Shown: positions 1,275 to 41,762 of the stretch, piece after piece | Position numbering within the stretch: the stretch's first letter is position 1 | Layout of the letters: every line of letters begins with the position of its first letter | Assembly (NCBI GenBank): GCA_028715785.1 | Contig: JAQURC010000002.1 | Span: 76,322-140,321 of the forward strand | DNA: 64,000 nucleotides | Source of the DNA: Candidatus Omnitrophota bacterium | Lineage (GTDB): Bacteria > Omnitrophota > Gorgyraeia > Gygaellales > Profunditerraquicolaceae | Reading direction: 5' to 3' | Position numbers and translations under genes: made by a program | The notes under the pieces: generated by a model | Told to the model about the DNA's origin: nothing | Databases searched by the model: none | The model's input: the letters and a program-made list of their open reading frames with translations, nothing else

Positions 1275-1275
1275 A

Positions 1276-1325: not shown

Positions 1326-1331
1326 CTAAAA

Positions 1332-2270
1332 ATGAAAAATATAATTATTAGTTTATTGGTAGCAAGTTTCTTGAGTGTTTCAGGAGGCAGTGTTTTAGCC
1401 CGGGATAAAGAGCCCGAGGGGACAATAACCCTGTCCGGCGCCTGGGCGATCTATCCAACGGCAGTGGCCTGGGCCGAGGCGTTTCAAAAGAAGTATTCTA
1501 AAGTAAAAATCGATGTTTCAGCCGGAGGCGCGGGAAAAGGCGCCGCCGATGCTATTGCCGGTTTAGTGGATATCGGGATGGTTTCGCGCGATCCGGATCC
1601 CGCGGAAATAAAAAAAGGGATAACTCCAATATATATCCTGCATGACGCGGTATTCCCTGTGACTAGCGACAAAAATCCGGCAGTTGCCGGGCTTCTAAAA
1701 AAAGGAGTGAAGCTGAGCACTTGGATTGGTATCTATATTGACGGATTGGTTACTACCTGGGATCAGGTAGTCGGCAGCAAGGTGGATAAAAAGATCCATG
1801 TTTATACCCGTTCGGATTCCTGCGGCGCGGCCCAAAGCTGGGCGGCATATTTAGGCAAGAAACAGGAGGATTTAAAGGGTGTAGGTATTTATGGCGACCC
1901 GGGCCTGCTGGAAGCAGCCAAAAGAGACCCTATAGGCCTTGGTTTTAATAACTTCAGTTATATTTTTACCCGGGATGGAAGTGTAGTTAACGGAGCAAGG
2001 ATAGTGCCGATTGATTCCAATGAAAATGGCATTGCCGATAGCGATGAAATCTATACAAACCGTGAAGCCGCCATTAAAGCCATCCGGGCCGGCAGGTACC
2101 CGGCGACAAGAAAAAATTATTTTTTTGTTAAAGGCAAGCCCGGCGGGTTAGTCAAGGAGTTTATCGAGTTTACGCTTTCTGAGGAAGGCGCAAAGATAGT
2201 TGATGAAACCGGGGCGAGTTTATCTTTGCCTCGGGCAGAAAGAGAAAAGATATTGAAAAATCTGGAATGA
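1332..2270 (+). CDS. pstS: phosphate ABC transporter substrate-binding protein PstS
   Basis: 312 aa with signal peptide; PBP-type motifs (TLSGAWAIYP, SAGGAGKGAADAIAGLVDIG); followed by pstC, pstA and pstB. Confidence 0.8.
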   Translation: MKNIIISLLVASFLSVSGGSVLARDKEPEGTITLSGAWAIYPTAVAWAEAFQKKYSKVKIDVSAGGAGKGAADAIAGLVDIGMVSRDPDPAEIKKGITPIYILHDAVFPVTSDKNPAVAGLLKKGVKLSTWIGIYIDGLVTTWDQVVGSKVDKKIHVYTRSDSCGAAQSWAAYLGKKQEDLKGVGIYGDPGLLEAAKRDPIGLGFNNFSYIFTRDGSVVNGARIVPIDSNENGIADSDEIYTNREAAIKAIRAGRYPATRKNYFFVKGKPGGLVKEFIEFTLSEEGAKIVDETGASLSLPRAEREKILKNLE

Positions 2271-2282
2271 TAGTAATAATAA

Positions 2283-2308
2283 GGGAGGGCAGTAAAAGCT
2301 GCCTTCCC
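2283..2308 (+). terminator. hairpin after pstS (terminator-like)
   Basis: GGGAGGGCAG-taaaag-CTGCCTTCCC inverted repeat just after the pstS stop; the downstream T-tract is weak. Confidence 0.35.
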
Positions 2309-2362
2309 TTACTGCAAAGATAGTTAATAAAATACTGCGCAAGCTACAGGGCAAGGAGAGAT

Positions 2363-3292
2363 TTGAATATCAGAATAATTAAAGAAAATTTGGTTCGCCG
2401 GGCCATGTTTGGTCTATGCCTTTTTGTGTTTAGCCTTATATTTCTGATGGCGTTTGGTTTGTACCAAAAGTCTAAACCAATACTGGCAATAGTAAGTTTA
2501 AAAGATTTACTGTTTTCTTCAAGCTGGCATCCGACTCAAGGCCATTTTGGTTTGAGTAGTTTTATCGCCGGTACATTTTGGGTAACGGCAATCGCGGTGA
2601 TTATTGCCGTGCCTTTAAGTATACTGACGGCCATATATATTTCAGAATATGCCTCTGGCTGCGTACGGAGGCTTGCTAAACCGATAATTGATTTGCTCGC
2701 AGGTATTTCGCCGATTATCTTCGGTGTCTGGGGTATAATCGCGGTTGTGCCTTTGGTGCGGGATTATCTGATGCCCTTTTTTAGCAGGAGATTTTCGTTT
2801 TTTCCATTTGTTTCTGATAATTATACCGGTTTTTCCGCCTTAACCGGGGGCATTGTTTTGGCGGTAATGACTTTTCCGATAATAATTTCCGTTGTCGAAG
2901 AGGTATTAAGAACCGTGCCCTTTGAAATTAGAGAAGCTTCATTGGCATTAGGGGCGACTAAATGGCAAACCATAAAATATGCTGTTTTGAAGAAAGCCAG
3001 GCCCGGAATAATTGCGGCGGTAATCCTGGGGGTTTCGCGCGCCTTTGGGGAAACAATGGCGGTTTTAATGGTGGCAGGTTGTTCTCTGGGCGTATTTCCT
3101 AAATCCGTCTTTGATCCTGCTTATCCGTTGCCGGCCTTGATTGCCAATACCTACGGTGAAATGATGTCTATACCGTTATATGATTCAGCGGTGCTTTTGG
3201 CGGCATTTATCTTATTGATCGTAACCGCTTTATTTAATATGGTTGGCTGGGGAATACTGCTTTACATTGAAAGGAAACAAGCCAGTGGATAA
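2363..3292 (+). CDS. pstC: phosphate ABC transporter permease PstC
   Basis: 309-aa polytopic membrane protein with the ABC permease EAA-like region (EASLALGATKWQTIKYAVL). TTG start per ORF track; an alternative ATG at 2405. Confidence 0.75.
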   Translation: MNIRIIKENLVRRAMFGLCLFVFSLIFLMAFGLYQKSKPILAIVSLKDLLFSSSWHPTQGHFGLSSFIAGTFWVTAIAVIIAVPLSILTAIYISEYASGCVRRLAKPIIDLLAGISPIIFGVWGIIAVVPLVRDYLMPFFSRRFSFFPFVSDNYTGFSALTGGIVLAVMTFPIIISVVEEVLRTVPFEIREASLALGATKWQTIKYAVLKKARPGIIAAVILGVSRAFGETMAVLMVAGCSLGVFPKSVFDPAYPLPALIANTYGEMMSIPLYDSAVLLAAFILLIVTALFNMVGWGILLYIERKQASG

Positions 3293-4136
3293 AAGAAGGA
3301 TTGAAGAGAATGTATTTAAAGGGCTCATGGTATTTTCTACGTTTATTGTGGCCAGCAGCTTAGTTCTTATTTTGATAACTATATTTATAAAAGGATTTCC
3401 CGCGTTAAATTTAGACATGATCATTAAGACGCCTAAGGGCGGGTATTATCTGGGTAAAGAAGGCGGGGTGCTCAATGCTATCTTAGGGTCGCTTATTTTA
3501 GGAACAGCAGCGACATTTTTGGCTTTATTGGTCAGCTTACCTTTAGTTTTTTATTTAAATTTATACCTGAAGAAAAATTCAAGGCTTGCTTTATCCGTGC
3601 GTTTCATCCTGGACGTGCTCTGGGGTATACCGTCCATTGTTTATGGCGCGTTTGGTTTTACCTTGATGGTATTTTTCGGACTGCGGGCCTCGCTCTTAGC
3701 CGGCATAATTACCGTGGCGTTATTAATAATTCCCATTATGGCAAGAAGCATAGATGAGGTTTTAAAGATGATTCCTTTTGAATTAAAAGAAGCCTCATAC
3801 GCTTTGGGGGCGACTAAATTAGAAACGTCAATTAAGGTGATTTTCAGGCAAGCCCTGCCGGGCATATTAACGGCAATCCTGATTGCCTTTGGCAGAGGCA
3901 TAGGGGATGCGGCCTCGGTTTTATTTACAGCCAGCTTTACCGATTCCCTGCCTTATTCTTTATTTAAACCGGTAGCTACGCTGCCTTTGTCCATATTTTT
4001 TCAATTAGGCACTCCTTTTCCTGAAGTTCAGCAGCGCGGCTACGCCTCCGCGTTAATCTTAACGGTGATAATTCTATTCATAAGCATATTATCCAGGATT
4101 TTATCCGGGAAATTTACCAAGCATACGATCAAATAA
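3285..4136 (+). CDS. pstA: phosphate ABC transporter permease PstA
   Basis: Membrane protein with EASYALGATKLETSIKVIFRQALPG permease signature. Probable GTG start at 3285 in the ORF that begins at 3243 and overlaps the pstC 3' end. Confidence 0.75.
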   Translation: MDKRRIEENVFKGLMVFSTFIVASSLVLILITIFIKGFPALNLDMIIKTPKGGYYLGKEGGVLNAILGSLILGTAATFLALLVSLPLVFYLNLYLKKNSRLALSVRFILDVLWGIPSIVYGAFGFTLMVFFGLRASLLAGIITVALLIIPIMARSIDEVLKMIPFELKEASYALGATKLETSIKVIFRQALPGILTAILIAFGRGIGDAASVLFTASFTDSLPYSLFKPVATLPLSIFFQLGTPFPEVQQRGYASALILTVIILFISILSRILSGKFTKHTIK

Positions 4137-4148
4137 GAGGTGAAAACA

Positions 4149-5162
4149 ATGAAATTTAAGACTCACATAAGCGTAAAAAATTTAAGCGTCTGGTATGGCC
4201 GGCATCAGGCGTTGAATAATATCTCCATCGATATCCCGGATAAAAAGATAACCGCGATAATCGGGCCTTCCGGCTGCGGAAAGTCTACTTTGCTTAAGTC
4301 CTTTAACCGTTTGGTCGAGTTGCAGGACGGGGCTAAGGTCGCCGGGGAGGTATTGGTTGATGGAGAAGATATCTATAATCCTAAAGTCGAAGTTACGCAT
4401 TTAAGAAAAAAGATGGGCTTGCTTTCTCAGCGGCCCCAGGTTTTGCCGGCATCTATTTATGAGAATGTGGCTTATGGGTTAAGAATACACGGCATAAAGG
4501 ATAAGAGAAAATTAGATGAAGTTGTGCGGCATTATTTAAAAGAGTCAAATCTTTGGGATGAAGTAAAGGATAGGCTGCATAGTTCCGCTTCGAAATTATC
4601 TATCGGCCAGCAGCAAAGGCTCTGCCTGGCAAGAGGTTTAGCGGTTGAGCCGGAGGTAATCTTGGGGGATGAGCCTACCTCGGCATTAGACCCGCTTTCT
4701 GCGGAATGCATTGAACAACGTTTATTAGAGCTTAAAAATCAATACACCATAGTTTTGGTTACCCATATTTTAAGGCAGGCCAGGCGCCTTGCCGACCACA
4801 TTATTTTTTTGTATTTAGGCAACCTCATTGAGCATGGCCCGGCAGAGGAGGTTTTAAAGAACCCCAGGTATCTAAAAACTAAAAGTTATCTTGAGGGCAA
4901 ATTTATCGAAGAGCCAAAAATCGATAAAGAACTGAATTTAAGAGGGGTCATTTACCCGGATAATTTAATAGCGGCAAAATTGGCATTGGGGGATTTACAA
5001 TTTGGCCAAATATTAAAGATCATCGTTGATTATGAGCAGGCGGCAAGCGAACTTCCCAAAGCAATCGAGCATGAAGGCCACAAGATCCTTGAAGTAACAA
5101 AACTTGACAAAAACGATGGGGCGATAATTGTTCAGAAACATAATGGCGGCTATGTGATATAA
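4149..5162 (+). CDS. pstB: phosphate ABC transporter ATPase PstB with C-terminal Cys-less TusA-like domain
   Basis: Walker A GPSGCGKST, signature LSIGQQQRL, Walker B ILGDEPTSALD. An extra 85 aa follow the PstB core (ELNLRGVIYPDNLIAAKLALGDLQFGQILKIIVDYEQAASELPKAIEHEGHKILEV...) that match the TusA fold pattern, but the CP of the CPxP motif is replaced by YP. RBS AAGAGGTG sits 6 nt before the ATG at 4149. Confidence 0.8.
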   Translation: MKFKTHISVKNLSVWYGRHQALNNISIDIPDKKITAIIGPSGCGKSTLLKSFNRLVELQDGAKVAGEVLVDGEDIYNPKVEVTHLRKKMGLLSQRPQVLPASIYENVAYGLRIHGIKDKRKLDEVVRHYLKESNLWDEVKDRLHSSASKLSIGQQQRLCLARGLAVEPEVILGDEPTSALDPLSAECIEQRLLELKNQYTIVLVTHILRQARRLADHIIFLYLGNLIEHGPAEEVLKNPRYLKTKSYLEGKFIEEPKIDKELNLRGVIYPDNLIAAKLALGDLQFGQILKIIVDYEQAASELPKAIEHEGHKILEVTKLDKNDGAIIVQKHNGGYVI

Positions 5163-5210: not shown

Positions 5211-6176
5211 GTGAATTTTTATCTTATCGGAACAGATTGTCAAAGCGCGGATTTAATTAAACGCGAGCAGATCAGCGCAAGGCGCCGGCAGATCAGCCTT
5301 TACTGGGCAAAGTTTTTTTCTGAAATGGCGGCATTATCTACCTGTAATCGTTTTGAGCTTTATGGAATTGCCGGTGAATCAATAAAATTTCCGCGGATTG
5401 AGGCGGGTTGGTATTTTATAGAGGGCAAGGTAAATGTTTTTGCTCACGCTTTGAGGGTGGCTGTCGGCCTTGAGTCCCGCCTTAAAGGGGAATTACAAAT
5501 TTTAGAGCAGATAAATTCCTGGTCTAATAAGATTCCCGCAAGCTTAGCCGGACTTTGGAACAGGGCTTACTCCGACGCTCTTCTTATACGCGGGGAATCA
5601 GGGCTCAATGGCCGGGATAATATTGCTACTTTTGTATTCGATGACATGAAAAAAAAATTAACCCGGGGAAATGAATTGAGAATTGTGGTAATCGGAACAG
5701 GCAAGATTGCCGGGCTTTTGGCGGAGCACCGGCCTGCTAAGGCGCGTTTAATTTTTGCGGCCCATAAAAATAAATTTGCCGCCGAAAAACTGGCGGAATC
5801 AGCCCGCGGCGTAACGGTATCTTTAAGTGGCTTAGCTGAAGTTTTAGCTGAAGCGGATTTTTTAGTCAGCGCTACCGCAAGCCCGCATTTTATTCTTAAG
5901 GCGGAAGAATTGGAAAGGATAGCTTGGCGGCGCAAGAGGCCATTGTATATTTATGATTTAGCCGTCCCCAGGGATATCGAGCCGGCGGCAGGCCAAATAG
6001 CGGGGATAGTTTTAAAGAACCTTGATGATTTATCTTTTGTTTTCAAAGAGCATAATGATAGAATAAAAAATAATTTGTTTCTGGCGGAATACCTTGTCGG
6101 AGAAAAGATTAAAGAATATGAAAAAAACTTTAAGGTTGGGAGCCCGCCCAAGCCCGCTATCCTTAAAACAGGTTGA
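5211..6176 (+). CDS. hemA: glutamyl-tRNA reductase HemA (short; C-terminal dimerization domain apparently absent)
   Basis: LSTCNRFELYG catalytic-Cys motif and NADPH-binding VIGTGKIAGLLAEH. Only 321 aa versus about 420 canonical. GTG start. Confidence 0.65.
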   Translation: MNFYLIGTDCQSADLIKREQISARRRQISLYWAKFFSEMAALSTCNRFELYGIAGESIKFPRIEAGWYFIEGKVNVFAHALRVAVGLESRLKGELQILEQINSWSNKIPASLAGLWNRAYSDALLIRGESGLNGRDNIATFVFDDMKKKLTRGNELRIVVIGTGKIAGLLAEHRPAKARLIFAAHKNKFAAEKLAESARGVTVSLSGLAEVLAEADFLVSATASPHFILKAEELERIAWRRKRPLYIYDLAVPRDIEPAAGQIAGIVLKNLDDLSFVFKEHNDRIKNNLFLAEYLVGEKIKEYEKNFKVGSPPKPAILKTG

Positions 6177-6831
6177 TGAAATAAAGGATATTTTCCCCTT
6201 TATTGATTTTGAGGTTCTTACTTATCAAACGCAGGGGGATAGGGATAAACATACGCCTTTTACGGGCTTGGAAGGCAGTGATTTTTTTACCCGCCGGCTT
6301 GAAGAGGCGTTGTTAAAAAACGAGATAGATGTTGCGGTGCATAGCGCTAAAGATTTAGAAGAAAATCCGCCTTCCGGATTAACAATTGCCGCGATCACCG
6401 CCTCCATAAGCCCTTATGAATGCCTGGTTTCTTGCGGCAATAAACTTTTGGGGGCGCTTAAGCCGGGCAGCAAGGTTGCTACCAGCAGCTCCAAACGCAA
6501 AAACGCGCTTTTACGCTATCGCAGCGATCTTGAAATATGCGATGTGCGCGGCAATATCGAAGAACGTTTATATCAGTTGGATGCGGGGAAGTTTGACGCT
6601 CTCATTGTGGCGCATGCGGCCCTGATTAGGCTTGGGCTTGAAAATAGGATCGCGGAAATTATCCCTGATTGGATTATTCCCGCGCACCCTTTGCAAGGGT
6701 CTTTAGCCCTGCAGGTGCGCAGTGATAATCAAGGTTTAATAGATCTATTCAGTGTAGTAAGCAACACCCCGCGCTTAAAGGAATTGCGCGGGTGCGCCCT
6801 TGCGGGCAAGGAGAAAAAGAATGCGGATTAA
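6118..6831 (+). CDS. hemC: porphobilinogen deaminase HemC (short; most of domain 3 missing)
   Basis: MKKTLRLGARPSPLSLKQ N-terminus with HSAKDL and ALIVAHAALIRLGLE motifs. About 237 aa versus about 310. The last ~20 codons are encoded by repeat-element copy 2. Overlaps the hemA 3' end by about 59 nt in another frame. Confidence 0.65.
   Translation: MKKTLRLGARPSPLSLKQVDEIKDIFPFIDFEVLTYQTQGDRDKHTPFTGLEGSDFFTRRLEEALLKNEIDVAVHSAKDLEENPPSGLTIAAITASISPYECLVSCGNKLLGALKPGSKVATSSSKRKNALLRYRSDLEICDVRGNIEERLYQLDAGKFDALIVAHAALIRLGLENRIAEIIPDWIIPAHPLQGSLALQVRSDNQGLIDLFSVVSNTPRLKELRGCALAGKEKKNAD
6765..6813 (+). repeat. intercistronic two-hairpin element, copy 2 (overlaps hemC 3' codons; 5' of thiS-metY start)
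   Basis: CACCCCGCGC-TTAAAGGAATT-GCGCGGGTG + GCCC-TTGC-GGGC + AAGGAG, then ATG at 6821. Confidence 0.7.
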
Positions 6832-8260
6832 AATAAACGGCAAAGAACAATTGGTTGATGATCGGGATCCATCGATTACCGGATTACTAAAGGCGGCTAA
6901 TGTGGAAAATCCCCAGATGGTCTCTGTTCAGCTCAACGGGAAATTTGTTGACCGGTCGAAATTTGACAAGCTGCGTTTGAAAGAGGGTGACCATCTGGAT
7001 TTTCTTTATTTTATGGGAGGAGGGAACGGATTAAGATTTATCACTAAAATTTTGCATACTAAATTTTCAAAAGAAGATCCGCACGGGTCTTTGCATATGC
7101 CGGTCTATGACAATGTGGCTTTTGAGTTTAAGACCGCCGAGGACCTGGAGCTTGCCTTCCAGGGCAAGAAACCTTCACATATGTACAGCCGCATAAGTAA
7201 TCCTACGGTCGAACATTTTGAACAAAGAATCAAGGCTATAACCGCTGGCGCGGGTGTAATCGCGCTTTCTTCCGGAATGGCGGCTATCTCCAATACCATT
7301 TTAACCGTTGCCAGGAGCAAAGATAATATCATTACTTCCAAACACCTTTTCGGCAACACCTATTCTTTATTTGAAAATACGCTTAAAGAGTGGGGTTTAG
7401 AGACCCGCTATGTTGATTTGACCAGGCCGGAAAAAGTAAGCCGGCTTATCGACGCAAAAACCAAAGCGATATTCCTTGAGACAATTACCAATCCCCAGCT
7501 TGAGGTGGCGGATATCAAGGCTCTTTCTGAAATAGCTGGAAGAAAAAATATCCTGCTTATTGCCGATACTACCATGACCCCGCCGTATATTTTTTCAGCC
7601 AAGGAATTCGGCGTGGATATTGAAGTTATCTCAAGCACCAAGTGGATTTCCGGAGGCGCAACCAGCGTCGGAGGTTTAATTATCGACCATGGGCTTTATG
7701 ATTGGAAAAAGAATGATAAGCTGCATAGTGACGCGGTTAAGTTCGGCCCTTTTGCTTTTATCAGCCGGCTCAGGCGTGAGGTGTACAGGAACATCGGGGC
7801 CTGTATGTCCGCGCATAACGCCTATCTTCAAGGCTTGGGGCTGGAAACATTGCCGTTGAGGCTTGATATTGCCTGCGCCAATACGCTTAAGATCGCGGAA
7901 TTTTTAAAAGAGGCCTCCCGGGTGAAATCCGTAAATTATCCCGGGCTTGGCGATTCTGCTTACTATGAAACTGCCCGTAAGCAATTCGGGGATAAGCCGG
8001 GGGCGGTTTTAACTTTTGACCTGGCATCGAAAAAAGAGTGTTTTTGTTTCCTGAATAACTTAAAACTTATCCGCAGGGCTACGAATTTACATGATAACCG
8101 CTCGCTGATTTTGCATCCGGGATCAACGATCTTTTGCGAATACGACGACGCGCTTAAAAATGAGATGGGGGTAAGGGACACTTTGATCAGGCTTGCCGTG
8201 GGTATCGAGGATTACCGGGATTTAATTTCCGATATACAACAGGCCCTGGAGGGTTTATGA
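6821..8260 (+). CDS. ThiS/MoaD-like sulfur-carrier domain (ends FMGGG) fused to O-acetylhomoserine sulfhydrylase (MetY)
   Basis: The N-terminal 66 aa have the ThiS pattern and end in Gly-Gly-Gly. The remainder is PLP-dependent OAH sulfhydrylase (HMYSRISNPTV, SSTKWISGGATSVGG). The ATG is preceded by the element RBS. Confidence 0.75.
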   Translation: MRIKINGKEQLVDDRDPSITGLLKAANVENPQMVSVQLNGKFVDRSKFDKLRLKEGDHLDFLYFMGGGNGLRFITKILHTKFSKEDPHGSLHMPVYDNVAFEFKTAEDLELAFQGKKPSHMYSRISNPTVEHFEQRIKAITAGAGVIALSSGMAAISNTILTVARSKDNIITSKHLFGNTYSLFENTLKEWGLETRYVDLTRPEKVSRLIDAKTKAIFLETITNPQLEVADIKALSEIAGRKNILLIADTTMTPPYIFSAKEFGVDIEVISSTKWISGGATSVGGLIIDHGLYDWKKNDKLHSDAVKFGPFAFISRLRREVYRNIGACMSAHNAYLQGLGLETLPLRLDIACANTLKIAEFLKEASRVKSVNYPGLGDSAYYETARKQFGDKPGAVLTFDLASKKECFCFLNNLKLIRRATNLHDNRSLILHPGSTIFCEYDDALKNEMGVRDTLIRLAVGIEDYRDLISDIQQALEGL

Positions 8261-9066
8261 TGAGTTTTACCGAACAGCAGATAGAGCGTTATAGCCGCCA
8301 CATCATTCTTGGCGACGTCGGAGTTGAGGGGCAGGAAAAAATTTCGAATGGAAAGGTGCTGATTATCGGTACCGGAGGGCTTGGCGCGCCGGCTGCTTTA
8401 TATTTGGCAGCCGCCGGTGTCGGCACGATTGGTTTAGTTGACGGGGATAATGTCGAGCTGTCAAACTTGCAGCGGCAGGTCATTCACTTTACTCCCGATG
8501 TCGGTAAGCCTAAAGTATTGTCGGCCCAAGAAAAAATCGCTTCTATTAATCCGGATGTCAAAGTCGTTACCTATCAGAGCAGGGTTTATTCAGGCAATAT
8601 CGCCGGAATTATTAAAGGTTACGATTTTATTATCGACGGGACGGATAATTTTGCCGCTAAATTTTTAATTAATGATGCCTGTGTTTTCGCTGCTAAGCCG
8701 TTTTCACACGGGGGAATTTTACGTTTTGACGGACAGAGCATGACTTATCTTCCGGGCCAGACATGTTATAGGTGTATATTTACCGGGCCTCCTCCTAAAG
8801 GGGCGGTTCCGACTTGTTCGCAAACCGGTATTTTAGGGGCGGTTGCCGGTATGCTGGGCACGATCCAGGCGGCTGAAGCCTTGAAATTTCTTATTGGAAA
8901 AGGGGAGCTTCTGGTGAACCGGCTGCTGATCTTTAATGCTTTGGATATGAAGTTCCGCCAGGCGCAGTTCAAAAGAAATCCGGATTGTCCTGTGTGCGGA
9001 AATAATCCGACAATTAAGGGATTGATTGATGAAGAACTGCCTGCTTGTGATTTAAAACATAAATGA
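8257..9066 (+). CDS. E1-like adenylyltransferase (MoeB/ThiF/HcyF-type)
   Basis: GTGGLGAPAALYLAAAGVG nucleotide-binding loop; C-terminal CxxC...CxxC zinc motif (CYRC, CPVC). Confidence 0.8.
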   Translation: MMSFTEQQIERYSRHIILGDVGVEGQEKISNGKVLIIGTGGLGAPAALYLAAAGVGTIGLVDGDNVELSNLQRQVIHFTPDVGKPKVLSAQEKIASINPDVKVVTYQSRVYSGNIAGIIKGYDFIIDGTDNFAAKFLINDACVFAAKPFSHGGILRFDGQSMTYLPGQTCYRCIFTGPPPKGAVPTCSQTGILGAVAGMLGTIQAAEALKFLIGKGELLVNRLLIFNALDMKFRQAQFKRNPDCPVCGNNPTIKGLIDEELPACDLKHK

Positions 9067-9470
9067 AAATAACCAGGAAAGTAATTAAAGAGATAGTGGA
9101 GCAGGCTAAAAAGGAGGCGCCGCTTGAGGCCTGCGGGTATCTTGGCGCCAAAGACGGTATTATTACAAAAATATACGCGTTGACCAATATCGATAAAAGT
9201 AATGAGCATTTTTCTTTTGAGCCAAAAGAACAATTCCTGGCAGTTAAAGATGCCCGCGCTCAAGGACTGGAGATTTGCGCTGTCTATCATAGCCATCCAG
9301 CCAGCCCGGCCCGGCCGTCAGAGGAGGATATAAAACTGGCATATGATCCGGATAAGAGTTACTTTATTATTTCTCTGGCCGGATCTAACGAAGAGTTACG
9401 GGCATTTTCAATAAAGAGCGGTGTTGTTACTGAAATTAATCTGGAGGTCATTGATGATCAAAGGGTATGA
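9063..9470 (+). CDS. JAMM/MPN+ metalloprotease (Mec+/HcyD-like; would cleave after Gly-Gly)
   Basis: EACGYL ... HSHPASPARPSEED JAMM motif; 135 aa; adjacent to the E1 and to the ThiS-MetY fusion. Confidence 0.75.
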   Translation: MKITRKVIKEIVEQAKKEAPLEACGYLGAKDGIITKIYALTNIDKSNEHFSFEPKEQFLAVKDARAQGLEICAVYHSHPASPARPSEEDIKLAYDPDKSYFIISLAGSNEELRAFSIKSGVVTEINLEVIDDQRV

Positions 9471-11817
9471 TTTGCCTCTTGGGTTGGATGAGGAAATCAG
9501 CCAGCTTGAAGAGCTGATACGTAAATATAGGGCAGGCGAGGTTTCGGCAACCGAACTTAAGGCGCATCGCGTGCCTTTTGGCGTATATGAACAGCGCCAG
9601 GCTGACACCTACATGGTGAGGATCAGGTGCGCCGGAGGTTTTGTTACCCCCTTACAGCTGGAAAGCGTTTCTGCCATTGCCCGGGAATACGGAGTAAACC
9701 AGCTGCATATTACCTCCCGGCAGGAGCTGCAAATTCATTATGTGAAATTGGATGATATTGTTAGCCTGATCAGGCGCTTAAAAGAGATCGGCCTTTCTAC
9801 AAGGGGAGGCGGCGGCAACACTGTGCGCAATATTGCCGCTTGCGATGACGCCGGAATTGACCCGCAGGAAGTCTTTGATGTGTCTTGGTATGTTGCGGCT
9901 TTGACCACAAGGATGATTGCCGAGGGGGATTCCTGGAATTTGCCGCGAAAATTTAAAATTGCTTTTTCCGGTTCCGCGGAGGATAAGGGGTATGCCACTC
10001 TTTCCGACCTGGGTTTTATCGCGAAAATAAAAAACGGGATAAAAGGATTCAGGGTTTACGCGGCCGGAGGCTTGGGCGCTAAATCAGCCGAGGGGAAACT
10101 TTTATTTGATTTTATTGAAGCAGGCCAGGTTTATCCAATTGCCGAGGCGCTGAAAAATGTTTTTTTCAAATTTGGCAACCGCAGGAATAAGCATGCGGCC
10201 CGCCTGCGTTTCTTATGGCAGAACCTCGGTGAAGAGGAGTTTAAGAAAAAGTTTAATCAAGAGTATGAACGGATTAAAGCCGAAGGTTTTAGGCCCTTAG
10301 ATATTGTTGAACAGGAGCAGGGGCCTGGATTTTTCTCCGGTTTACCCAAAGATAAACCTTTTGATGCCGGCGGGTTTTTATTATGGAAAACGCGCTTTGT
10401 AAGAAAGCAAAAACAGGAGGGATTATTCTCGGTATTAATCCCTATAGAGCTGGGTTTTATTTCTTGCGTAGAAGCCGCTAAACTAGGCCGGTTCCTGAAA
10501 CCCTTTGGCAGCGATATGTTGAGGATGACGCGGGACCAGAATTTCCTCATACGCAATATCCCTTTGGATTATTTAGGCGCGGCCTATAATTTCTTGAAAG
10601 AAACTATACCCGAGGCAAGCCGGCCTGCTCTCTACGGCAAAATATTATCCTGCGCCGGAGCTGCTACCTGCCAGCTTGGGATCTGCCTTTCCCGCCAGGC
10701 AGCAGGCGTTTTGATCGCTGAACTTAAAAAAAGCAATTTGGACCTGGATAAAATAGGAGATATTAAAATCAATATTTCCGGATGCCCTAATTCCTGCGGC
10801 CATCATCCGGCGGCTGATCTGGGTTTTTCGGGCAAGGCATTGAGGAATGGCGACCGGTTGTATCCGGCTTATAATGTGTTTGCCGGAGCGGTTATTGGCG
10901 ATGGCAAAACTAAGCTGGCAGAACATAGCGGCGAGATCCCTGCCAAGGCCTTGGCCCTGCTGGTAAAGGATTTTCTTAAAGGTTATCTCTCCAAGTCCGG
11001 GCAGTTTAAGGATTTTCGGGAGTATATTCACGGCGAAGGAAAAAGCGATCTAAAAGAAATCATTTCGCACTACTCTAAGGCGCCTGATTTTGATGAAGAT
11101 AAAAATTATTATTTTGACTGGGAAGCGGATACGCTTTTTTCTTTGGCCGAGCGTAAGGCAGGGGAATGTTCCGCCGGATTCTTCGATCTTTTGGAAATGG
11201 ATTTAAATAATCTAAAAAATACTCAGGCGGCGCTTGCAGCAGGCGCGCAGGATGAAGAGGAAAAAAAGAAATCACTCGGCGAGCTTGTATTTTATGCCAG
11301 CCGGGCGCTTTTGATTACCCGCGGGCTTGATGCAAAAAGCCAGGAGGAGGTGTATACGGGATTCCTCAAATATTTTATCGAAACAGGGCTGATCGATGGC
11401 TCATTTAGGGAGATCATCACTATTGCCCAGCGCGGCGATTATAAAGAGATTTTAGCAAAGCAGGCTCAGGCGCTTGAACTGGCCAAGGCAGTGCAGGCGC
11501 TGTATGAAACTATGGATAATAGCTTTAATTTTTCCCGCCCATCGGTAAATATATCGGGCGGGATCCCGCCGGAGGCGGGAAAAACGATTATATCGCCTAT
11601 CATTGTTAAAGATCTCCGCGGAGTTGCCTGTCCGCTTAATTTTGTCAAGACTAAGATCGAGCTTGCCAAGCTAAAATCCGGAGAGGCATTGGAAATTTGG
11701 CTCGATGACGGGGCTCCGATTGAGAATGTCCCCGGCTCGGTAAAAGCCGAAGGCCACAGGATTATTTCGCAGAAAAAGATCGCCAATTACTGGTCGGTAG
11801 TAATTAATAAAAAATAA
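9454..11817 (+). CDS. assimilatory sulfite (nitrite/sulfite-family) reductase hemoprotein with C-terminal TusA domain
   Basis: NiR/SiR siroheme-4Fe4S cysteine cluster (SCAGAATCQLGICLS...SGCPNSCGHHP). The C-terminal 70 aa form a canonical TusA domain (LRGVACPLNFVKTK). Starts MIKGYDL at 9454. Confidence 0.75.
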   Translation: MIKGYDLPLGLDEEISQLEELIRKYRAGEVSATELKAHRVPFGVYEQRQADTYMVRIRCAGGFVTPLQLESVSAIAREYGVNQLHITSRQELQIHYVKLDDIVSLIRRLKEIGLSTRGGGGNTVRNIAACDDAGIDPQEVFDVSWYVAALTTRMIAEGDSWNLPRKFKIAFSGSAEDKGYATLSDLGFIAKIKNGIKGFRVYAAGGLGAKSAEGKLLFDFIEAGQVYPIAEALKNVFFKFGNRRNKHAARLRFLWQNLGEEEFKKKFNQEYERIKAEGFRPLDIVEQEQGPGFFSGLPKDKPFDAGGFLLWKTRFVRKQKQEGLFSVLIPIELGFISCVEAAKLGRFLKPFGSDMLRMTRDQNFLIRNIPLDYLGAAYNFLKETIPEASRPALYGKILSCAGAATCQLGICLSRQAAGVLIAELKKSNLDLDKIGDIKINISGCPNSCGHHPAADLGFSGKALRNGDRLYPAYNVFAGAVIGDGKTKLAEHSGEIPAKALALLVKDFLKGYLSKSGQFKDFREYIHGEGKSDLKEIISHYSKAPDFDEDKNYYFDWEADTLFSLAERKAGECSAGFFDLLEMDLNNLKNTQAALAAGAQDEEEKKKSLGELVFYASRALLITRGLDAKSQEEVYTGFLKYFIETGLIDGSFREIITIAQRGDYKEILAKQAQALELAKAVQALYETMDNSFNFSRPSVNISGGIPPEAGKTIISPIIVKDLRGVACPLNFVKTKIELAKLKSGEALEIWLDDGAPIENVPGSVKAEGHRIISQKKIANYWSVVINKK

Positions 11818-11819
11818 AA

Positions 11820-13217
11820 ATGGGAAGAGCTAAAGTGTATTTAATCGGCGCCGGCCCCGGAGCCAAGGATTTGATCAGCTTAAGGGGCCGGCAGGCGCTT
11901 GAGCAGGCAGAAGTCATAATCTATGATTATCTTGTGGATAGGGAGGTGCTTGAGGATGTAAACCCGCAGGCAAAGCTGATCTGCTGCGATAAGTTAGGCA
12001 AGAGGCAGCCGCAAGAGGGATCTTTTGACTCCCAGGCTAAAGTCAACTTGGCGATGGTAAAATTTGCCAAAGGCGGAAAACTAGTGGCGCGTTTAAAAAA
12101 CGGAGACCCTTTTATTTTTGGCCGGGCGCAGGAAGAGATAGAAGCGCTTTTAAAAAATCGCATAGAATTTGAGGTTATTCCGGGAATTACCGCCTCCCAA
12201 GCTGCCGCTTGTTTTTCCGGCATACCTTTGACCAGCCGCAAAATTTCATCCAGCGTTATCTATGTCAGCGGCCAACAGGCAAAAGGAGAAAAACCGGCTA
12301 TTGATTGGAGTTCCATTGCTAAAAATGAAACTATCGTCTTATATATGGCGGTAAAAAATATCCGCCAAATAGCCGAACAGCTGATTAAAAATGGCAAGCC
12401 CGCGGATACTCCGGCGGCTGCGATTGCCCGGGCAGGAAAGATCGACCAGAGAGTTGCCATCGCTAAACTTGAGGATATCGCCGGGAGGGTTAAGAAAGAT
12501 AAGATTAGTGCGCCGGCTATTTTTATTATCGGCCCGGTTGTGCGTCTGAGCCGGAGATTGAATTGGTTTAAAAAAAATAAGCGTATTTTGTTTACGGGGC
12601 TTTCGGCAAGACGGTTTTTTTTAAAAGGAAATTATTTCCATTTGCCGATGATTAAGATTGCCCCTGCCGGTAATTATGCGGATTTTGACAGGCAGATTAA
12701 GGCAATCCGGAGTTTTGACTGGATAATTTTTACCAGCCGTTATGCTGTGCAGTATTTTTTCCAGCGCCTGGATAAAATCGGCCTGGATGCGCGTTCACTG
12801 CAGAATATTAAAATTGCGGCAATCGGAGCTTCTACGGCCGCCAGGCTTAGGGGCTTGGGGATTATTGCGGATTTAATTCCCAAAGTTGAGAGATCAAAAG
12901 GCCTGCTTGGCGCCTTAAAAAGGATTCCCTTAACAGGCAGAAGGATTTTTTTGCCTCATTCCGATATTTCGGACAAAGGATTGGCAAAAGGATTAAAGAG
13001 TCTGGGCGCCAGAGTTACCGCTTCTGTTGCCTATAGAAATATCATGCCTGAAAAACTTCCTGACTTTGCTGTGGATACATTTGACGAAATAGTTTTTACC
13101 AGCCCATCCTGCGTGCGTAATTTCGTTAAACGTTACGGGAAACCGCCAAAAAAAGTGGCTATAAAGTGCATAGGGGATGTTACCCTTGCCCAGGCTAAAA
13201 AGTTACGTTTATTATAA
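11820..13217 (+). CDS. uroporphyrinogen-III C-methyltransferase (CobA) fused to uroporphyrinogen-III synthase (HemD)
   Basis: The N-terminal half has the SAM-dependent MTase VYLIGAGPGAKDLISLRG motif. The C-terminal half is a HemD-like fold. A known cobA-hemD fusion architecture. Confidence 0.75.
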   Translation: MGRAKVYLIGAGPGAKDLISLRGRQALEQAEVIIYDYLVDREVLEDVNPQAKLICCDKLGKRQPQEGSFDSQAKVNLAMVKFAKGGKLVARLKNGDPFIFGRAQEEIEALLKNRIEFEVIPGITASQAAACFSGIPLTSRKISSSVIYVSGQQAKGEKPAIDWSSIAKNETIVLYMAVKNIRQIAEQLIKNGKPADTPAAAIARAGKIDQRVAIAKLEDIAGRVKKDKISAPAIFIIGPVVRLSRRLNWFKKNKRILFTGLSARRFFLKGNYFHLPMIKIAPAGNYADFDRQIKAIRSFDWIIFTSRYAVQYFFQRLDKIGLDARSLQNIKIAAIGASTAARLRGLGIIADLIPKVERSKGLLGALKRIPLTGRRIFLPHSDISDKGLAKGLKSLGARVTASVAYRNIMPEKLPDFAVDTFDEIVFTSPSCVRNFVKRYGKPPKKVAIKCIGDVTLAQAKKLRLL

Positions 13218-13219
13218 AA

Positions 13220-14152
13220 ATGCAAAACCTGTCTTCCAAAAACCTGATTATGCCGTATTTTGTTATTGAAGGGCGCAATAAAAAAGAACCTGTTGCCAAT
13301 ATGCCGGGTATTTCCAGGCTGACTGTTGATAATCTGTTAAAAGAAGTATCAGAGTCAAAGCAGCTGGGTGTATCCAAAGCGCTTCTTTTTGGAGTCTGCC
13401 CTCGGCACTATAAAAATGAACTGGCAAATTATGCCTATGCCAAAAACAATATCGTATCCAGGGCAGTGGCAGAATTAAAGCGCAAGATAAAAGGCTTATC
13501 TGTCATTACCGACGTATGCCTTTGCGCCTACACTTCGCACGGCCATTGCGCCATCCTTGATAAAAAAAATAAAATAGACGGCAAGAAAACTCTGGAGGCG
13601 CTTTCTAAAATTGCCCTTTCCCATGCTGCCAGCGGAGCAGATTGGGTTGCCCCTTCGGCAATGGCTAAAAAACAAGTTTTGGCGATAAGGGAAGCATTGG
13701 ATAAAAACGGATTTTCTAATGTGAAGATTATGGGCTATTCGGCTAAATTCGCCTCGAACTTTTACGGCCCATTCCGCGACGCGGCGGATTCGGCCCCTAA
13801 ATTCGGAGACAGAAAGGCTTATCAATTGGATTATAGCGACGCAAAAAAGGCGTTAAAGGAAATAGGGGATGATATCCGGGAAGGCGCGGATATGGTCATG
13901 GTTAAGCCGGCGCTAAGCTACCTGGATATTGTTAAAGAAGCAAAACAGAAATTTAATTATCCGCTGGCCGCTTATAATGTCAGCGGAGAGTATGTCTTGG
14001 TAAAAATGGGAGCTGGTATCGGGCTTTGGCAGGAGAAGAAAATTGTTTTTGAAATCACTGCTTCTATAAAACGCGCCGGAGCCGATTATATCATTACCTA
14101 CCACGCAAAGGACATTGCGCGATGGATAAAACAAAAGAATTATTTAACCTAG
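13220..14152 (+). CDS. hemB: porphobilinogen synthase (delta-aminolevulinate dehydratase)
   Basis: 310 aa with conserved HemB blocks (DVCLCAYTSHGHC metal-binding, active-site Lys region MVKPA). Confidence 0.85.
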   Translation: MQNLSSKNLIMPYFVIEGRNKKEPVANMPGISRLTVDNLLKEVSESKQLGVSKALLFGVCPRHYKNELANYAYAKNNIVSRAVAELKRKIKGLSVITDVCLCAYTSHGHCAILDKKNKIDGKKTLEALSKIALSHAASGADWVAPSAMAKKQVLAIREALDKNGFSNVKIMGYSAKFASNFYGPFRDAADSAPKFGDRKAYQLDYSDAKKALKEIGDDIREGADMVMVKPALSYLDIVKEAKQKFNYPLAAYNVSGEYVLVKMGAGIGLWQEKKIVFEITASIKRAGADYIITYHAKDIARWIKQKNYLT

Positions 14153-15381
14153 CCAGGCGTTATTTAGTCGGCGGCGTAGACAGCCCGGTGCGCAGCTTTA
14201 AGTATGCAGGCGGCCGCCCGCTGCTGCTTAAGTCCGGCAGAGGCGCTAAGGTATTTGATTATAATAATAAAGAATACCTGGATTATGTCCTTTCCTGGGG
14301 CGCGGCAATCTTAGGGCATGCTCATCCGGCTGTGCTTAAAACCATTAAGCAAAAATTAGGATTGGGTTTAGGTTTTGGCACAACTAACCAAGCTGAAATC
14401 GAGTTAGCGCAGGAGATTGCCCGGGCGATTCCTCTTATTGAGAAAATACGTTTTGTCAATTCCGGGACTGAAGCAGTGATGGGAGCAATAAGGCTGGCCC
14501 GTGCCTATACGGGAAGAGATAAAATCATAAAGTTTGCGGATTCTTACCATGGCCACGCGGATTATCTTTTGGTTAAGGCCGGCTCCGGGCTGGCAACTTT
14601 GGGGATTCCGGCAAGCGCTGGAGTGCCGAAAGATTTTATTAAGCATACACTGGTAGTTCCCTTTGGCGATGAAGAAGCGCTTGAGAAAGTATTTAAAAAA
14701 TATAAAAATGAAATCGCCGCGGTTTTGCTTGAGCCAGTAGGCGCAAATTACGGTGTTTTACCGGCAGATACCGGATTTTTGAAGAGAGTAAGGAGCCTGA
14801 CCAGAAAATATAACTCTTTACTGATCTGCGATGAAATAATTACCGGATTTCGTTTTAGATTCGGGGCAGCTTCCCATGATTTCGGGATTATTCCGGATTT
14901 AATCTGCTTGGGAAAGATTATCGGAGGAGGTTTGCCTATCGGGGCTTATGGCGGAAGCGCAAAAATCATGAATAACTTAGCTCCTTTGGGGAAGGTTTAT
15001 CAAGCTTCTACTTTTGCCGGTAATCCTGTTGTCATGCAGGCAGGCCTGGCTGCGCTTAAAATACTTAAAAATTTAAGCGACGGCTATCTGCGGATTAAGG
15101 ATTTAACCGAATATTTGTGCGCCAATTTAAAGGAAGCGGCGTTGGCTTCCGGAGTGGATTTAGAAATAAATTACTATGAGAGCATGTTCAGTTTGAAATT
15201 TAAATCAAGGTTTGAGTTTAGCAAATTTTACAGGCCAATGCTTGATAAGGGCGTATTTTTTGCGCCTTCGGAGTTTGAAGCGAACTTTTTATCTTTTGCC
15301 CACACAAAGAGTGATGTGGATAAAACTTTATATGCCGCAAAAGAGATTTTTAAAAAACTAGAAAAAAGACTTGACAAATAA
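14122..15381 (+). CDS. hemL: glutamate-1-semialdehyde 2,1-aminomutase
   Basis: 419 aa class-III aminotransferase (DSPVRSF, LICDEIITGFR, NSGTEA). Confidence 0.85.
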   Translation: MDKTKELFNLARRYLVGGVDSPVRSFKYAGGRPLLLKSGRGAKVFDYNNKEYLDYVLSWGAAILGHAHPAVLKTIKQKLGLGLGFGTTNQAEIELAQEIARAIPLIEKIRFVNSGTEAVMGAIRLARAYTGRDKIIKFADSYHGHADYLLVKAGSGLATLGIPASAGVPKDFIKHTLVVPFGDEEALEKVFKKYKNEIAAVLLEPVGANYGVLPADTGFLKRVRSLTRKYNSLLICDEIITGFRFRFGAASHDFGIIPDLICLGKIIGGGLPIGAYGGSAKIMNNLAPLGKVYQASTFAGNPVVMQAGLAALKILKNLSDGYLRIKDLTEYLCANLKEAALASGVDLEINYYESMFSLKFKSRFEFSKFYRPMLDKGVFFAPSEFEANFLSFAHTKSDVDKTLYAAKEIFKKLEKRLDK

Positions 15382-16177: not shown

Positions 16178-16216
16178 CAGTAATTGATCTAAGAATATTA
16201 AGCTGACCGGTCAACT

Positions 16217-35197: not shown

Positions 35198-36529
<1,332 letters not shown>

Positions 36530-39558: not shown

Positions 39559-39813
39559 ATGCTAATCAACATTAACGGTAAACCTGAAGAAGTCAAAATG
39601 AAAGCCAATCTCGCTGAACTTATTTTATCCAAAGGTTTGTGCGCGGAGAAAGTAGTTATTGAGCATAATCTCCGGATTGTCCCCAGGCAAGAGTGGAATA
39701 AAGTATTTTTGGGTGAAAATGATAATATCGAAATAGTAAGTTTTGTCGGGGGCGGTACTGAGCCTCCGATAAATAATGGAGACTCAGTAATATGGAAGAT
39801 TTTTTGGAGATAG
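39559..39813 (+). CDS. thiS: ThiS sulfur-carrier protein with 18-aa extension after Gly-Gly
   Basis: [12 protein letters not shown]...[10 protein letters not shown], then [18 protein letters not shown]. Overlaps the thiG start. Confidence 0.7.
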
Positions 39814-40562
39814 CCGGAGAAAAATTAAATAACCGGCTTTTTATCGGAACGGGAAAGTTTTCCAGCTACCCGATAATGAAGCAGGCTTTGGAAGAGGCAG
39901 GCACCCAGGTTGCTACAGTGGCTTTAAGAAGGGTGGATGAGGGCTCTAAAACAGAGAATATTATGGCTTATATTCCACGGGGCTGTAAAGTTATGATCAA
40001 TACTTCCGGAGCCAGGGACGCGCAGGAAGCCCTGCGTATTGCCCATCTGGCAAAAGCAGCCGGAGCCGGAAACTGGATAAAAATAGAGGTTATCCGTGAT
40101 AATAAATATTTGCTTCCCGACAGCCTTGAGACTTTAAAGGCGGTTGAAGTTTTGGCCAAAGAAGGTTTTATTGTGTTTCCGTATATGAGCCCGGATTTAT
40201 CGATTGCCAGGAGAATGGTTGATGCCGGAGCCAGCGCGATTATGCCTCTAGGCTCTCCGATAGGCAGCAATCGCGGGGTAAAAACCCGCGAGCTGATCGA
40301 AATAATGGTTAATGAAATTAAACTGCCGGTTATCGTTGATGCCGGCCTTGGAAGGCCTTCGCAAGCTTGTGAATGTATGGAACTGGGGGCTGCGGCAGTG
40401 TTGGTTAATACCGCAATTGCCGTTTCAGAGGATCCGGTAAAGATGGCTAAGGCCTTTGCTCAAGCAGTTTATGCGGGCAGGCTTGCCTATTTATCGGGAA
40501 TCCCGTCAGCAGTAAAAACAGCCCGCGCTTCCAGCCCCCTGACCGGATTTTTAAGGCAGTGA
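39792..40562 (+). CDS. thiG: thiazole synthase ThiG
   Basis: 256 aa; LFIGTGKF and VMINTSGA blocks. Confidence 0.85.
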
Positions 40563-40572
40563 TTTTTTCTAG

Positions 40573-40605
40573 ACCGTAGCGGAGGTTTAAACCTCCGCTA
40601 CGGTC
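40573..40605 (+). repeat. 33-bp perfect palindrome between thiG and thiH (hairpin or operator)
   Basis: GACCGTAGCGGAGGTTT|AAACCTCCGCTACGGTC. Confidence 0.5.
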
Positions 40606-40646
40606 CTGATGGAGATCTATTTTTTGACAATCTAACTGAAACTATA

Positions 40647-41762
40647 ATGAATTTTTATGGCATCTATTCCCAAAATAAAGATTTAAACCTGGGGAAAGCT
40701 TTTAGTTTTATTTCACCTGTCTCTATCCAGGAATCCCTGGAAGAAAATAATCTGGATACAAAGCAGTTCCTGGGGTTACTTTCTCCACAAGCCGAAAATG
40801 ATCTTGAAAGTATGGCCCAGAGAGCGCGGGCAATCACCAGGAATTATTTCGGCAATACCATCCAGCTTTATGCCCCGATGTATCTATCCAACTATTGCGA
40901 TAATTCCTGCCTTTATTGTGGTTTTAACCTGGACAATGAAATTCAAAGGAGAAAGCTTACCCTGGAGGAAGTGGAAAAAGAGGCGCAATTTATTTCCTCT
41001 TCGGGTTTAAAGCACATCCTTATTTTAACCGGGGAATCAAGGCTTCAGAGCCCGGTCAGCTATATCCAGGATTGCGTCAATGTCTTAAAAAAATATTTTA
41101 CTTCGATATCCATTGAAGTGTATCCTTTGACTGAAGATGAATATGTTTGCTTGGTTGCCGGCGGGGTGGATGGCCTGACAATCTATCAAGAAGTATATGA
41201 TGAGCGGCTTTACGCAAAAATGCATATTTTTGGCCCTAAAAAAGATTATCTATTCCGCCTGGATGCCCCGGAAAGAGGCGCAAAAGCCAGGATGAGAAGT
41301 GTTTCTATCGGGACATTGCTTGGTTTAGGTGACTGGAGAAAGGAAGCGTTCTTTCTGGGGTTGCACGCAAAATACCTGCTGGATAAGTTTCCGGATGTAG
41401 AAATTGGGATATCTGTTCCCAGGATTCAGCCGCAGGTCGGAGGTTTTAAACCAATTTGCCGGGTAAGCGACAAAAACCTCGTCCAGATAATTTTGGCTCT
41501 CAGGATTTTTCTGCCCCGGCTTGGGATTACGATCTCAACGCGGGAAAATCCGGAATTCAGGGAGAATCTCATACCCCTTGGTATTACTAGGATGTCGGCA
41601 GGTTCAACGACTAATGTCGGCGGCCACACTCTTTACGGAGAGGAAAAAGGGCAGTCTTCTCAGTTTCAGATCCAGGACCAAAGATCCGTGGGTCAGATTA
41701 AGGCTGCGCTTGAGAGAAAGGGGTATCAGCCGGTTTTTAAGGACTGGTTGTGTTTATTGTAG
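40647..41762 (+). CDS. thiH: 2-iminoacetate synthase ThiH (radical SAM)
   Basis: CDNSCLYCGF CxxxCxxC motif; 371 aa. Confidence 0.8.
   Translation: MNFYGIYSQNKDLNLGKAFSFISPVSIQESLEENNLDTKQFLGLLSPQAENDLESMAQRARAITRNYFGNTIQLYAPMYLSNYCDNSCLYCGFNLDNEIQRRKLTLEEVEKEAQFISSSGLKHILILTGESRLQSPVSYIQDCVNVLKKYFTSISIEVYPLTEDEYVCLVAGGVDGLTIYQEVYDERLYAKMHIFGPKKDYLFRLDAPERGAKARMRSVSIGTLLGLGDWRKEAFFLGLHAKYLLDKFPDVEIGISVPRIQPQVGGFKPICRVSDKNLVQIILALRIFLPRLGITISTRENPEFRENLIPLGITRMSAGSTTNVGGHTLYGEEKGQSSQFQIQDQRSVGQIKAALERKGYQPVFKDWLCLL

Follow-up and report, generated by a model that had tools for sequence, protein, structure and literature searches.

The MetY enzyme of Wolinella succinogenes is unusual in that its sulfur donor is the thiocarboxylate of a carrier protein and not bisulfide (PMC8191291), and the type 4e gene neighbourhood that corresponds to this pathway was catalogued in Table 1 of Iyer, Burroughs & Aravind (2006). 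A term search of that survey brought up carrier fusions with ThiS at the C terminus of a sulfite reductase, ThiS-ThiG, and MoaD-MoaE, but no ThiS-MetY fusion. Carriers fused to the enzyme that they serve are known to be released after Gly-Gly: Mycobacterium tuberculosis MoaX is cut between Gly82 and Ser83, which is required for activity, by a protease described as "as yet unidentified", and this processing failed in Escherichia coli (PMC4326299); the Deinococcus radiodurans JAMM protease DR0402 cleaves the MoaD-MoaE fusion DR2607 (Yang et al. 2018, cited in PMC8832034); and archaeal JAMMs cut linear SAMP fusions whatever the downstream partner. The pathway, the operon type, and the principle that an acceptor-fused carrier is released at Gly-Gly by a JAMM (MoaD-MoaE) are therefore established. 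Here, we describe a gene that joins a ThiS-type sulfur carrier in frame to a MetY-like enzyme, located in a 64,000-nucleotide stretch (hereafter, the window) of a Candidatus Omnitrophota genome (GCA_028715785.1, contig JAQURC010000002.1, positions 76,322 to 140,321). We found no published description of such a ThiS(HcyS)-MetY fusion in the searchable literature, although it may be listed somewhere as a domain architecture.

By its predicted gene content, the cassette belongs to an established route to homocysteine, the protein-thiocarboxylate pathway of the Wolinella HcyS/HcyF/HcyD/MetY type (type 4e of Iyer et al. 2006). The fusion lies in an uninterrupted open frame on the forward strand (6800..8260), and its probable start is the ATG at 6821, which has a GGAG 9 nt upstream and whose MKIK is matched by the equivalent N termini of the homologs. 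The Pfam ThiS match (PF02597; 30.1 bits, cutoff 22.5) covers residues 6-68 and reaches its last profile position exactly at Gly68, the Cys_Met_Meta_PP match covers residues 75-477 (348 bits), and the SSTK motif with the lysine for pyridoxal phosphate (PLP) occupies residues 271-274. Between the two domains the protein reads DFLYFMGGG-NGLRFITKILH (junction-spanning peptide, ...FLYFMGGGNGLR...), with neither a stop nor a frameshift in the open reading frame (ORF). We also looked near the junction for an internal MetY start and found no in-frame start codon between Met65 and Leu78, the GGG codons being spelled GGAGGAGGG. The Gly-Gly of the carrier is thus internal to the ORF and would be C-terminal solely once the protein is cleaved. 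In an AlphaFold 2 model of the fusion (mean predicted local distance difference test score, pLDDT, of 77), a folded, beta-grasp-like carrier (residues 1-63) and a folded MetY core are separated by residues 64-103 with a pLDDT below 50, which agrees with an accessible or flexible site at the predicted junction.

The initial annotation had read this locus as a 66-residue carrier domain ending in FMGGG, fused in frame to a full MetY and followed by a MoeB/ThiF-type E1 with CxxC pairs, a JAMM metalloprotease, and a sulfite reductase-TusA protein. The fusion itself is borne out by the single open frame, the two Pfam domains and the clean junction, and the order of the genes and the parallels drawn with the Wolinella and Mycobacterium systems are upheld as well. 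The E1 has a GTGGLG glycine-rich loop and CxxC pairs at CYRC170 and CPVC244; the JAMM site is intact (Glu22 and His76-Ser-His78-x7-Ser86-x2-Asp89), with 2KKS (108 bits) and PfJAMM1 (5LDA) as its best solved relatives; and the adjacent reductase carries CX5C and CX3C motifs besides its TusA domain. While the ending of the carrier was given correctly, its length to the last glycine is 68 residues and not 66. The term "full MetY" holds at the family level, whereas a canonical MetY it is not. An identical protein, from a Candidatus Omnitrophica metagenome-assembled genome (MAG), bears the database name "sulfur carrier protein ThiS", which is a domain-level label, and it illustrates an annotation problem, in that such proteins go by the name of "ThiS" in some cases and of "O-acetylhomoserine (thiol)-lyase" in others.

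The MetY part is predicted to belong to the carrier-dependent clade and not to the canonical, sulfide-using MetYs. Its best match in the PDB is 3RI6 (442 bits, against 298 bits for the next MetY), which we take to be MetY from W. succinogenes (Tran et al. 2011), and it scores under every NCBIfam cutoff (TIGR01326, 373 against 495; NF006096, 332 against 726). A canonical MetY paralog of 440 residues, which exceeds the same TIGR01326 cutoff (678 against 495) and is 36% identical to the fused MetY core, is encoded at 35207..36529 (+), where it belongs to a canonical direct-sulfhydrylation set (35207-39292, +) together with CysK, MetX and MetW. MetX is a homoserine O-acetyltransferase (NF001209, 501 against 331), so the organism can make O-acetylhomoserine, and with this set and the cassette in one window it appears to own a sulfide route and a carrier route. 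Two other loci, L085 and L086, also have a canonical MetY paralog, there directly beside the fused cassette.

On the carrier side, the best solved relative of the carrier profile is 2K5P/3CWI (2K5P, 83 bits), with the same FLYFMGGG end. The fused carrier is not of the thiamin type: no thi genes are adjacent to it, and a thiamin-type ThiS-ThiG-ThiH set lies apart (39559..41762, +), the ThiS of which (39559..39813) reaches 27.9 bits against the HcyS-type profile, compared with 113.6 bits for the fused carrier. This thiamin-type ThiS also runs past its GGG, into an 18-residue tail that overlaps the thiG start. Since the E1 of the cassette is the sole E1 within the window, and neither a further ThiF nor a second JAMM was found there, the HcyF-like E1 and the JAMM (8257-9470) might also serve thiamin synthesis.

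The fusion recurs. Among the 120 best homologs of the protein, 42 are fused (475-493 residues, 61-100% identity); they stem from independent assemblies (NCBI, JGI, ENA, and Logan), and every one of them has (D/E)F(L/V)YFMGGG. Phe61 to Gly68 are invariant in an alignment of 31 fused homologs, next to a linker that varies in sequence as well as in length (1-18 residues, mode 3-4); the residue directly after GGG is Ser in 26 of the fused homologs, Gly in 4, Gln in 4, Asp in 3, Asn in 2, Glu in 2, and Phe in 1. The start methionine of MetY is present in unfused ORFs and absent from fused ones. We read four further fused loci directly as DNA (L004, L084, L085 and L086), and in these, as in the window, the fusion is followed by ThiF, then Prok-JAB, then a sulfite reductase whose TusA is either part of the same protein or encoded on its own (5/5), and no stand-alone HcyS-type carrier was found in the cassette (5/5). 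In the divergent loci L084 (9663-10754) and L086 (9638-10751), a small NIR_SIR and ferredoxin-domain protein (285-296 residues) plus a separate 77-residue TusA replace the large reductase with its two NIR_SIR modules and TusA; the carrier, MetY, E1, and JAMM remain constant, so the sulfur-supply module appears to be interchangeable.

The fusion is mostly limited to Omnitrophota. An exhaustive search of 50%-identity representatives with residues 1-100 as the query returned mainly stand-alone carriers, along with three fused fragments (P0121, P0123, and P0129), and clustering at 50% hides fused proteins, probably under MetY representatives. Independent fusions beyond Omnitrophota are possible but barely documented, the divergent type P0123 consisting of only two fragments, on contigs below 1 kb and without taxonomy. 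A further hit, P0122 (1915 residues, scored as 12 "ThiS" repeats), was rejected as a composition artefact, as it is a cadherin/VCBS-like repeat adhesin without GG motifs.

Unfused MetYs of 409-413 residues (68-83% identity) are interleaved with the fused proteins, and in two unfused Omnitrophota loci a separate carrier gene of 72 or 79 residues sits at the position of the fused domain, its stop overlapping the MetY start as ATGA in one and TGATG in the other. Neither of these carriers ends at its glycines, the tails being GGG-EEAL and AGG-IEELPVSEWRK. Searched with the carrier profile, the species genomes of GTDB yielded at least 590 loci, the best 80 of which were classified. Within these 80, the carrier-MetY-E1-JAMM-reductase cassette or rearrangements of it occur in Omnitrophota, Bacteroidota, Desulfobacterota, SAR324, Fibrobacterota, Spirochaetota, Planctomycetota, Acidobacteriota, Verrucomicrobiota, Margulisbacteria, Bacillota, Campylobacterales, and others; one carrier is fused to MetY (L004, Omnitrophota) and one to a DsrE_2 domain (L005); and of the 79 carriers encoded separately, 76 continue for 1-17 residues after GGG, while the other three end there. 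Tails are likewise present in about 140 of the 148 carriers among the 50%-identity representatives. Tail removal is thus predicted to be the norm in this FLYFMGGG (HcyS-type) carrier family, whose pro-carriers would have to be processed by the JAMM in any case, and the fusion would carry this to an extreme. All 70 JAB ORFs of the related loci retain an intact JAMM motif. The identities of E1 and JAMM between fused and unfused loci track that of MetY, so we found no specialised "fusion" protease.

On a neighbour-joining tree of 119 MetY cores, the fused and unfused states change 14 times (9-17 times, with a median of 13, in 200 bootstraps), compared with 27-40 times when the labels are shuffled, and for six fused proteins the nearest neighbour on the tree is unfused. 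The changes are many and yet well below the shuffled control, which indicates that the state is heritable but has been switched repeatedly. The pattern fits small insertions or deletions at the overlapping stop/start junction of adjacent carrier and MetY genes, by which the fusion would be gained or lost between functionally equivalent states; the fused state is labile in evolution, and probably near-neutral. The survey for the same fusion that had been suggested with the initial annotation thus yielded the 42 fused homologs and the four further loci, and the exceptional status implied for the fusion must be tempered: it is real, but less exceptional given the tails in 76 of 79 carriers, the repeated toggling within Omnitrophota, and the MoaD-MoaE precedent. 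What we describe is a variant of an established bacterial pathway, one that recurs and that evolution reverses with ease.

We think it likely that this locus encodes a thiocarboxylate-dependent homocysteine pathway in which a single 53.5-kDa precursor (53,492 Da) comprises both the carrier and its acceptor enzyme, and from which the carrier is released by the JAMM. In this scheme, the adjacent JAMM would (i) cut the Gly68-Asn69 bond to yield a 7.69-kDa carrier ending in Gly-Gly-Gly (predicted, 7,694.8 Da) and a 45.8-kDa MetY (45,815 Da), after which (ii) the E1 would adenylate the glycine at the carrier's C terminus, and (iii) the siroheme sulfite reductase would supply reduced sulfur, possibly by way of its TusA domain, that converts it to the thiocarboxylate (7,710.9 Da). 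The MetY would then (iv) move the carrier sulfur onto O-acetylhomoserine, for which MetX and MetW are present in the window, to give a carrier-homocysteine adduct (about 7,812 Da), and (v) the same JAMM would hydrolyse this adduct to homocysteine and a recycled carrier. Cleavage of the fusion would be a one-off maturation, an extreme case of the tail removal that almost every carrier of the family needs.

The reading of the junction with the best support is cleavage to a free glycine C terminus, most probably by the JAMM encoded alongside. A thiocarboxylate can be built solely on the carboxylate of a free C terminus, which requires that the carrier be set free. That Gly68 would become the C terminus is suggested by the invariant GGG beside a freely varying linker, by a cassette without a further HcyS-type carrier, and by the lack of an alternative MetY start near the junction. 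The adjacent JAMM is the obvious protease since nearly all family carriers need a tail removed, since Wolinella HcyD is reported to trim an extra C-terminal Ala from HcyS and to hydrolyse the HcyS-homocysteine adduct, and since JAMMs are known to cleave linear carrier fusions (DR0402 and the archaeal enzymes).

It is improbable that the ThiS-like domain is never cleaved and serves MetY as a permanent docking or regulatory domain, with the sulfur coming from free sulfide or from another carrier, such as the ThiS at 39559..39813 charged by the same E1. Such an arrangement would make sense of a window with a second GGG-bearing ThiS and yet one E1, MetY-family enzymes generally accept sulfide, and Iyer et al. 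(2006) describe ThiF proteins with a fused ubiquitin-like domain that occurs alongside a separate ThiS and presumably has another role. The second ThiS, however, adjoins thiG and thiH and matches the HcyS-type profile poorly, whereas the fused domain is orthologous, by position, to the carrier that sister loci encode as a gene of its own; the JAMM is kept in all fused loci, and the exact GGG, at the end of an invariant segment that abuts a variable linker, would have no obvious use in a protein that stays whole. About equally unlikely, in our estimate, is cleavage at Gly-Gly by self-processing or by a housekeeping protease, which would leave the JAMM solely with hydrolysis of the carrier-homocysteine adduct. 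MoaX is a reminder, with its unassigned protease and its failed processing in E. coli, that the obvious protease is not always the one responsible. This explanation is less economical in view of a JAMM gene adjacent to the fusion in every fused locus, and the variable residue after GGG fits a protease that recognises the carrier and not the leaving group; the D. radiodurans enzyme and the archaeal JAMMs cleave linear carrier fusions. As for a frameshift introduced during sequencing or assembly, or a pseudogene-like accident without biological meaning, the source is indeed a MAG, in which a 1-nt error could join the overlapping carrier and MetY genes seen in sister genomes. The 42 distinct fused proteins from several assembly sources, with diverse in-frame linkers, the fused ORFs without the MetY start methionine, and the four additional loci read as DNA effectively refute this, and we regard it as exceedingly improbable.

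An unlikely extension of release by the JAMM is a zymogen-like control, in which the attached carrier would block or mis-position the N-terminal arm of MetY, so that both parts stay inactive until the zinc-dependent JAMM cuts. If true, JAMM cleavage would be a regulated, 1:1 licensing step for the entry of sulfur into methionine, and the system would be a bacterial counterpart of ubiquitin-fusion precursors and of SAMP1-MoaE, in which inhibition is followed by reactivation through HvJAMM1 (PMC4443979).

Several points weigh against the proposed JAMM-released pathway. Cleavage, thiocarboxylation, and homocysteine formation are steps that we infer, for this protein as for all of its fused homologs. 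The substrate of the MetY part is assumed, since this part falls below all curated NCBIfam cutoffs. With a canonical MetY and CysK at hand, the carrier pathway is not needed for methionine prototrophy. The low pLDDT of residues 64-103 may stem from modelling an oligomer as a monomer, if the N-terminal arm packs on a neighbouring subunit, and the number of switches, taken from a neighbour-joining tree of a single protein, could be inflated by horizontal transfer. Lastly, when we searched the window with the neighbour proteins of related loci, no genes for sulfate activation (CysD/N/C) or for adenosine 5'-phosphosulfate (APS) or 3'-phosphoadenosine 5'-phosphosulfate (PAPS) reductases were found, an Rrf2 regulator being the sole match; related loci do have such genes beside the cassette, and here the sulfite may have another source.

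The cassette is embedded among tetrapyrrole genes (Table 1), which fits the siroheme need of the reductase. The fusion, E1, JAMM, and reductase genes are joined by overlapping stops and starts, beginning with the E1 start, which overlaps the stop of the fusion gene; the position of E1 directly 3' of MetY is conserved in fused and unfused loci, and the reductase after the JAMM is kept in most related loci. Upstream, the HemA-like and HemC-like genes are arranged as in L003 and L084. The HemC-like porphobilinogen deaminase (245 residues) has the cofactor-binding domain without the C-terminal domain and shares 11 nt with the beginning of the fusion gene; its counterparts in L003 (229 residues) and L084 (210 residues) are just as short and argue for a feature of the lineage and not a truncation.

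Table 1. Features of the fusion cassette and the flanking tetrapyrrole genes (positions in the window)
Feature	Position	Strand	Basis and remarks
HemA-like gene	5211..6176	+	GlutR_N/Shikimate_DH
HemC-like gene, short	6094..6831	+	Porphobil_deam
ThiS-MetY fusion ORF	6821..8260	+	479 aa; carrier and MetY-like PLP enzyme in frame
HcyS-type ThiS-fold carrier domain, aa 1-68, end FLYFMGGG	6821..7024	+	Pfam ThiS; predicted cleavage after G68
Junction/linker, aa 69-73, NGLRF	7025..7039	+	Between carrier GGG and conserved start of the MetY core, ITKILH
MetY-like PLP enzyme part (O-acetylhomoserine sulfhydrylase family)	7040..8260	+	Cys_Met_Meta_PP; SSTK motif; 3RI6 best PDB match
E1-like adenylyltransferase (HcyF/MoeB/ThiF type), 269 aa	8257..9066	+	ThiF PF00899, 270 bits; without rhodanese
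JAMM/MPN+ metalloprotease (HcyD/Mec+ type), predicted processing enzyme	9063..9470	+	Prok-JAB, 84 bits
Siroheme-type sulfite/nitrite reductase, two NIR_SIR modules and C-terminal TusA	9454..11817	+	NIR_SIR, NIR_SIR_ferr, TusA aa 720-786
Uroporphyrinogen-III methylase/synthase fusion, HemB, HemL	11820..15381	+	TP_methylase+HEM4, ALAD, Aminotran_3

Farther 5' of the cassette (6-5162, +) lie a porin gene and then genes for a PstS/PstC/PstA-like ATP-binding cassette (ABC) transporter, the PstB-like ATPase of which (4140..5162, +) ends in a TusA domain (43 bits). Such a "phosphate-type" transporter with TusA amid sulfur assimilation suggests a candidate oxyanion importer, perhaps for sulfite, thiosulfate, or sulfate, although it is not so annotated. 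On the 3' side of the hem genes (15441-26683, +) follow an Rrf2 regulator, a porin, an NMT1/SsuA-like binding protein, a flavin mononucleotide (FMN) reductase, a major facilitator superfamily (MFS) transporter, and an ABC permease, a set that resembles a sulfonate-uptake cluster; the Rrf2 regulator is also found beside the cassette in L001, L003, and L084.

Carrier domains were met in two further architectures. In L085, which has a ThiS-MetY fusion in the same genome, a ThiE (TMP-TENI)-ThiS fusion of 281 residues (1386-2231) precedes thiG and thiH, with ThiS at the C terminus, an orientation that leaves the GG end of the carrier free. In L005, a Bacteroidetes MAG (CAVSGB010000120.1, 6501-12499), an N-terminal FLYFMGGG carrier is joined to DsrE_2 in a protein of 225 residues, after which come TusA, an SrpI-like shell protein of the type 2A encapsulins that has a cNMP-binding domain, a 637-residue class-V aminotransferase (cysteine-desulfurase-like and possibly encapsulin cargo), and then E1 and JAMM. 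The locus thus brings together the machinery of the thiocarboxylate carrier and an encapsulin sulfur system.

If the JAMM frees the carrier from MetY, the fusion would be a second, independent bacterial carrier-acceptor precursor after MoaD-MoaE, and, with the protease, the E1 and the sulfur source in one operon, it would offer a compact system for studying substrate recognition by prokaryotic JAMMs. The tail rule across the FLYFMGGG family, with its species genomes numbering at least 590, may outweigh the fusion itself in usefulness: a C-terminal extension as the rule implies that proteolytic maturation is built into this poorly annotated methionine pathway. The repeated switching, in turn, suggests that genes with overlapping stops and starts easily become polyproteins where a processing protease already exists.

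Compared with the Wolinella system (Krishnamoorthy & Begley 2011), the locus has in one cassette the same predicted components, namely a carrier with a GG end, a rhodanese-less E1, a JAMM, a carrier-type MetY, and a siroheme sulfite reductase with TusA/SirA, and in both the carrier would be made as a precursor in need of C-terminal trimming; the FLYFMGGG-type carrier of a Campylobacterales locus (L047) has a 1-residue tail. Unlike in Wolinella, the "tail" here is an entire MetY of 411 residues, so that carrier and acceptor are one translation product, and the order is carrier-MetY-E1-JAMM-reductase, within siroheme genes, in an Omnitrophota lineage. Eukaryotic ubiquitin-ribosomal protein and polyubiquitin precursors also carry an N-terminal beta-grasp fusion that deubiquitinases release after Gly-Gly. 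Their partner is not a carrier-using enzyme and no sulfur chemistry is involved, which makes the resemblance one of analogy only.

The CysO/MoeZ/Mec+/CysM system of M. tuberculosis (mentioned in PMC6225789) shares with the locus a ThiS-fold carrier thiocarboxylate, a PLP sulfhydrylase, and a JAMM (Mec+) that hydrolyses a carrier-amino-acid adduct, but it makes cysteine via CysM, its MoeZ E1 has a rhodanese, and its carrier is a separate protein. Closest in design are the MoaD-MoaE fusions, in which an N-terminal ubiquitin-fold carrier is likewise joined through Gly-Gly to the enzyme that uses its thiocarboxylate; in MoaX the residue after the cut is Ser, which is also the commonest residue at this position among the ThiS-MetY fusions. 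They differ in that the carrier here is an HcyS-type ThiS and not MoaD, the acceptor is the PLP enzyme MetY and not MoaE, the predicted product is homocysteine and not molybdopterin, and the gene of the putative protease shares an operon with the fusion. The likeness of ThiS-MetY to MoaD-MoaE would accordingly be one of mechanism and not of family.

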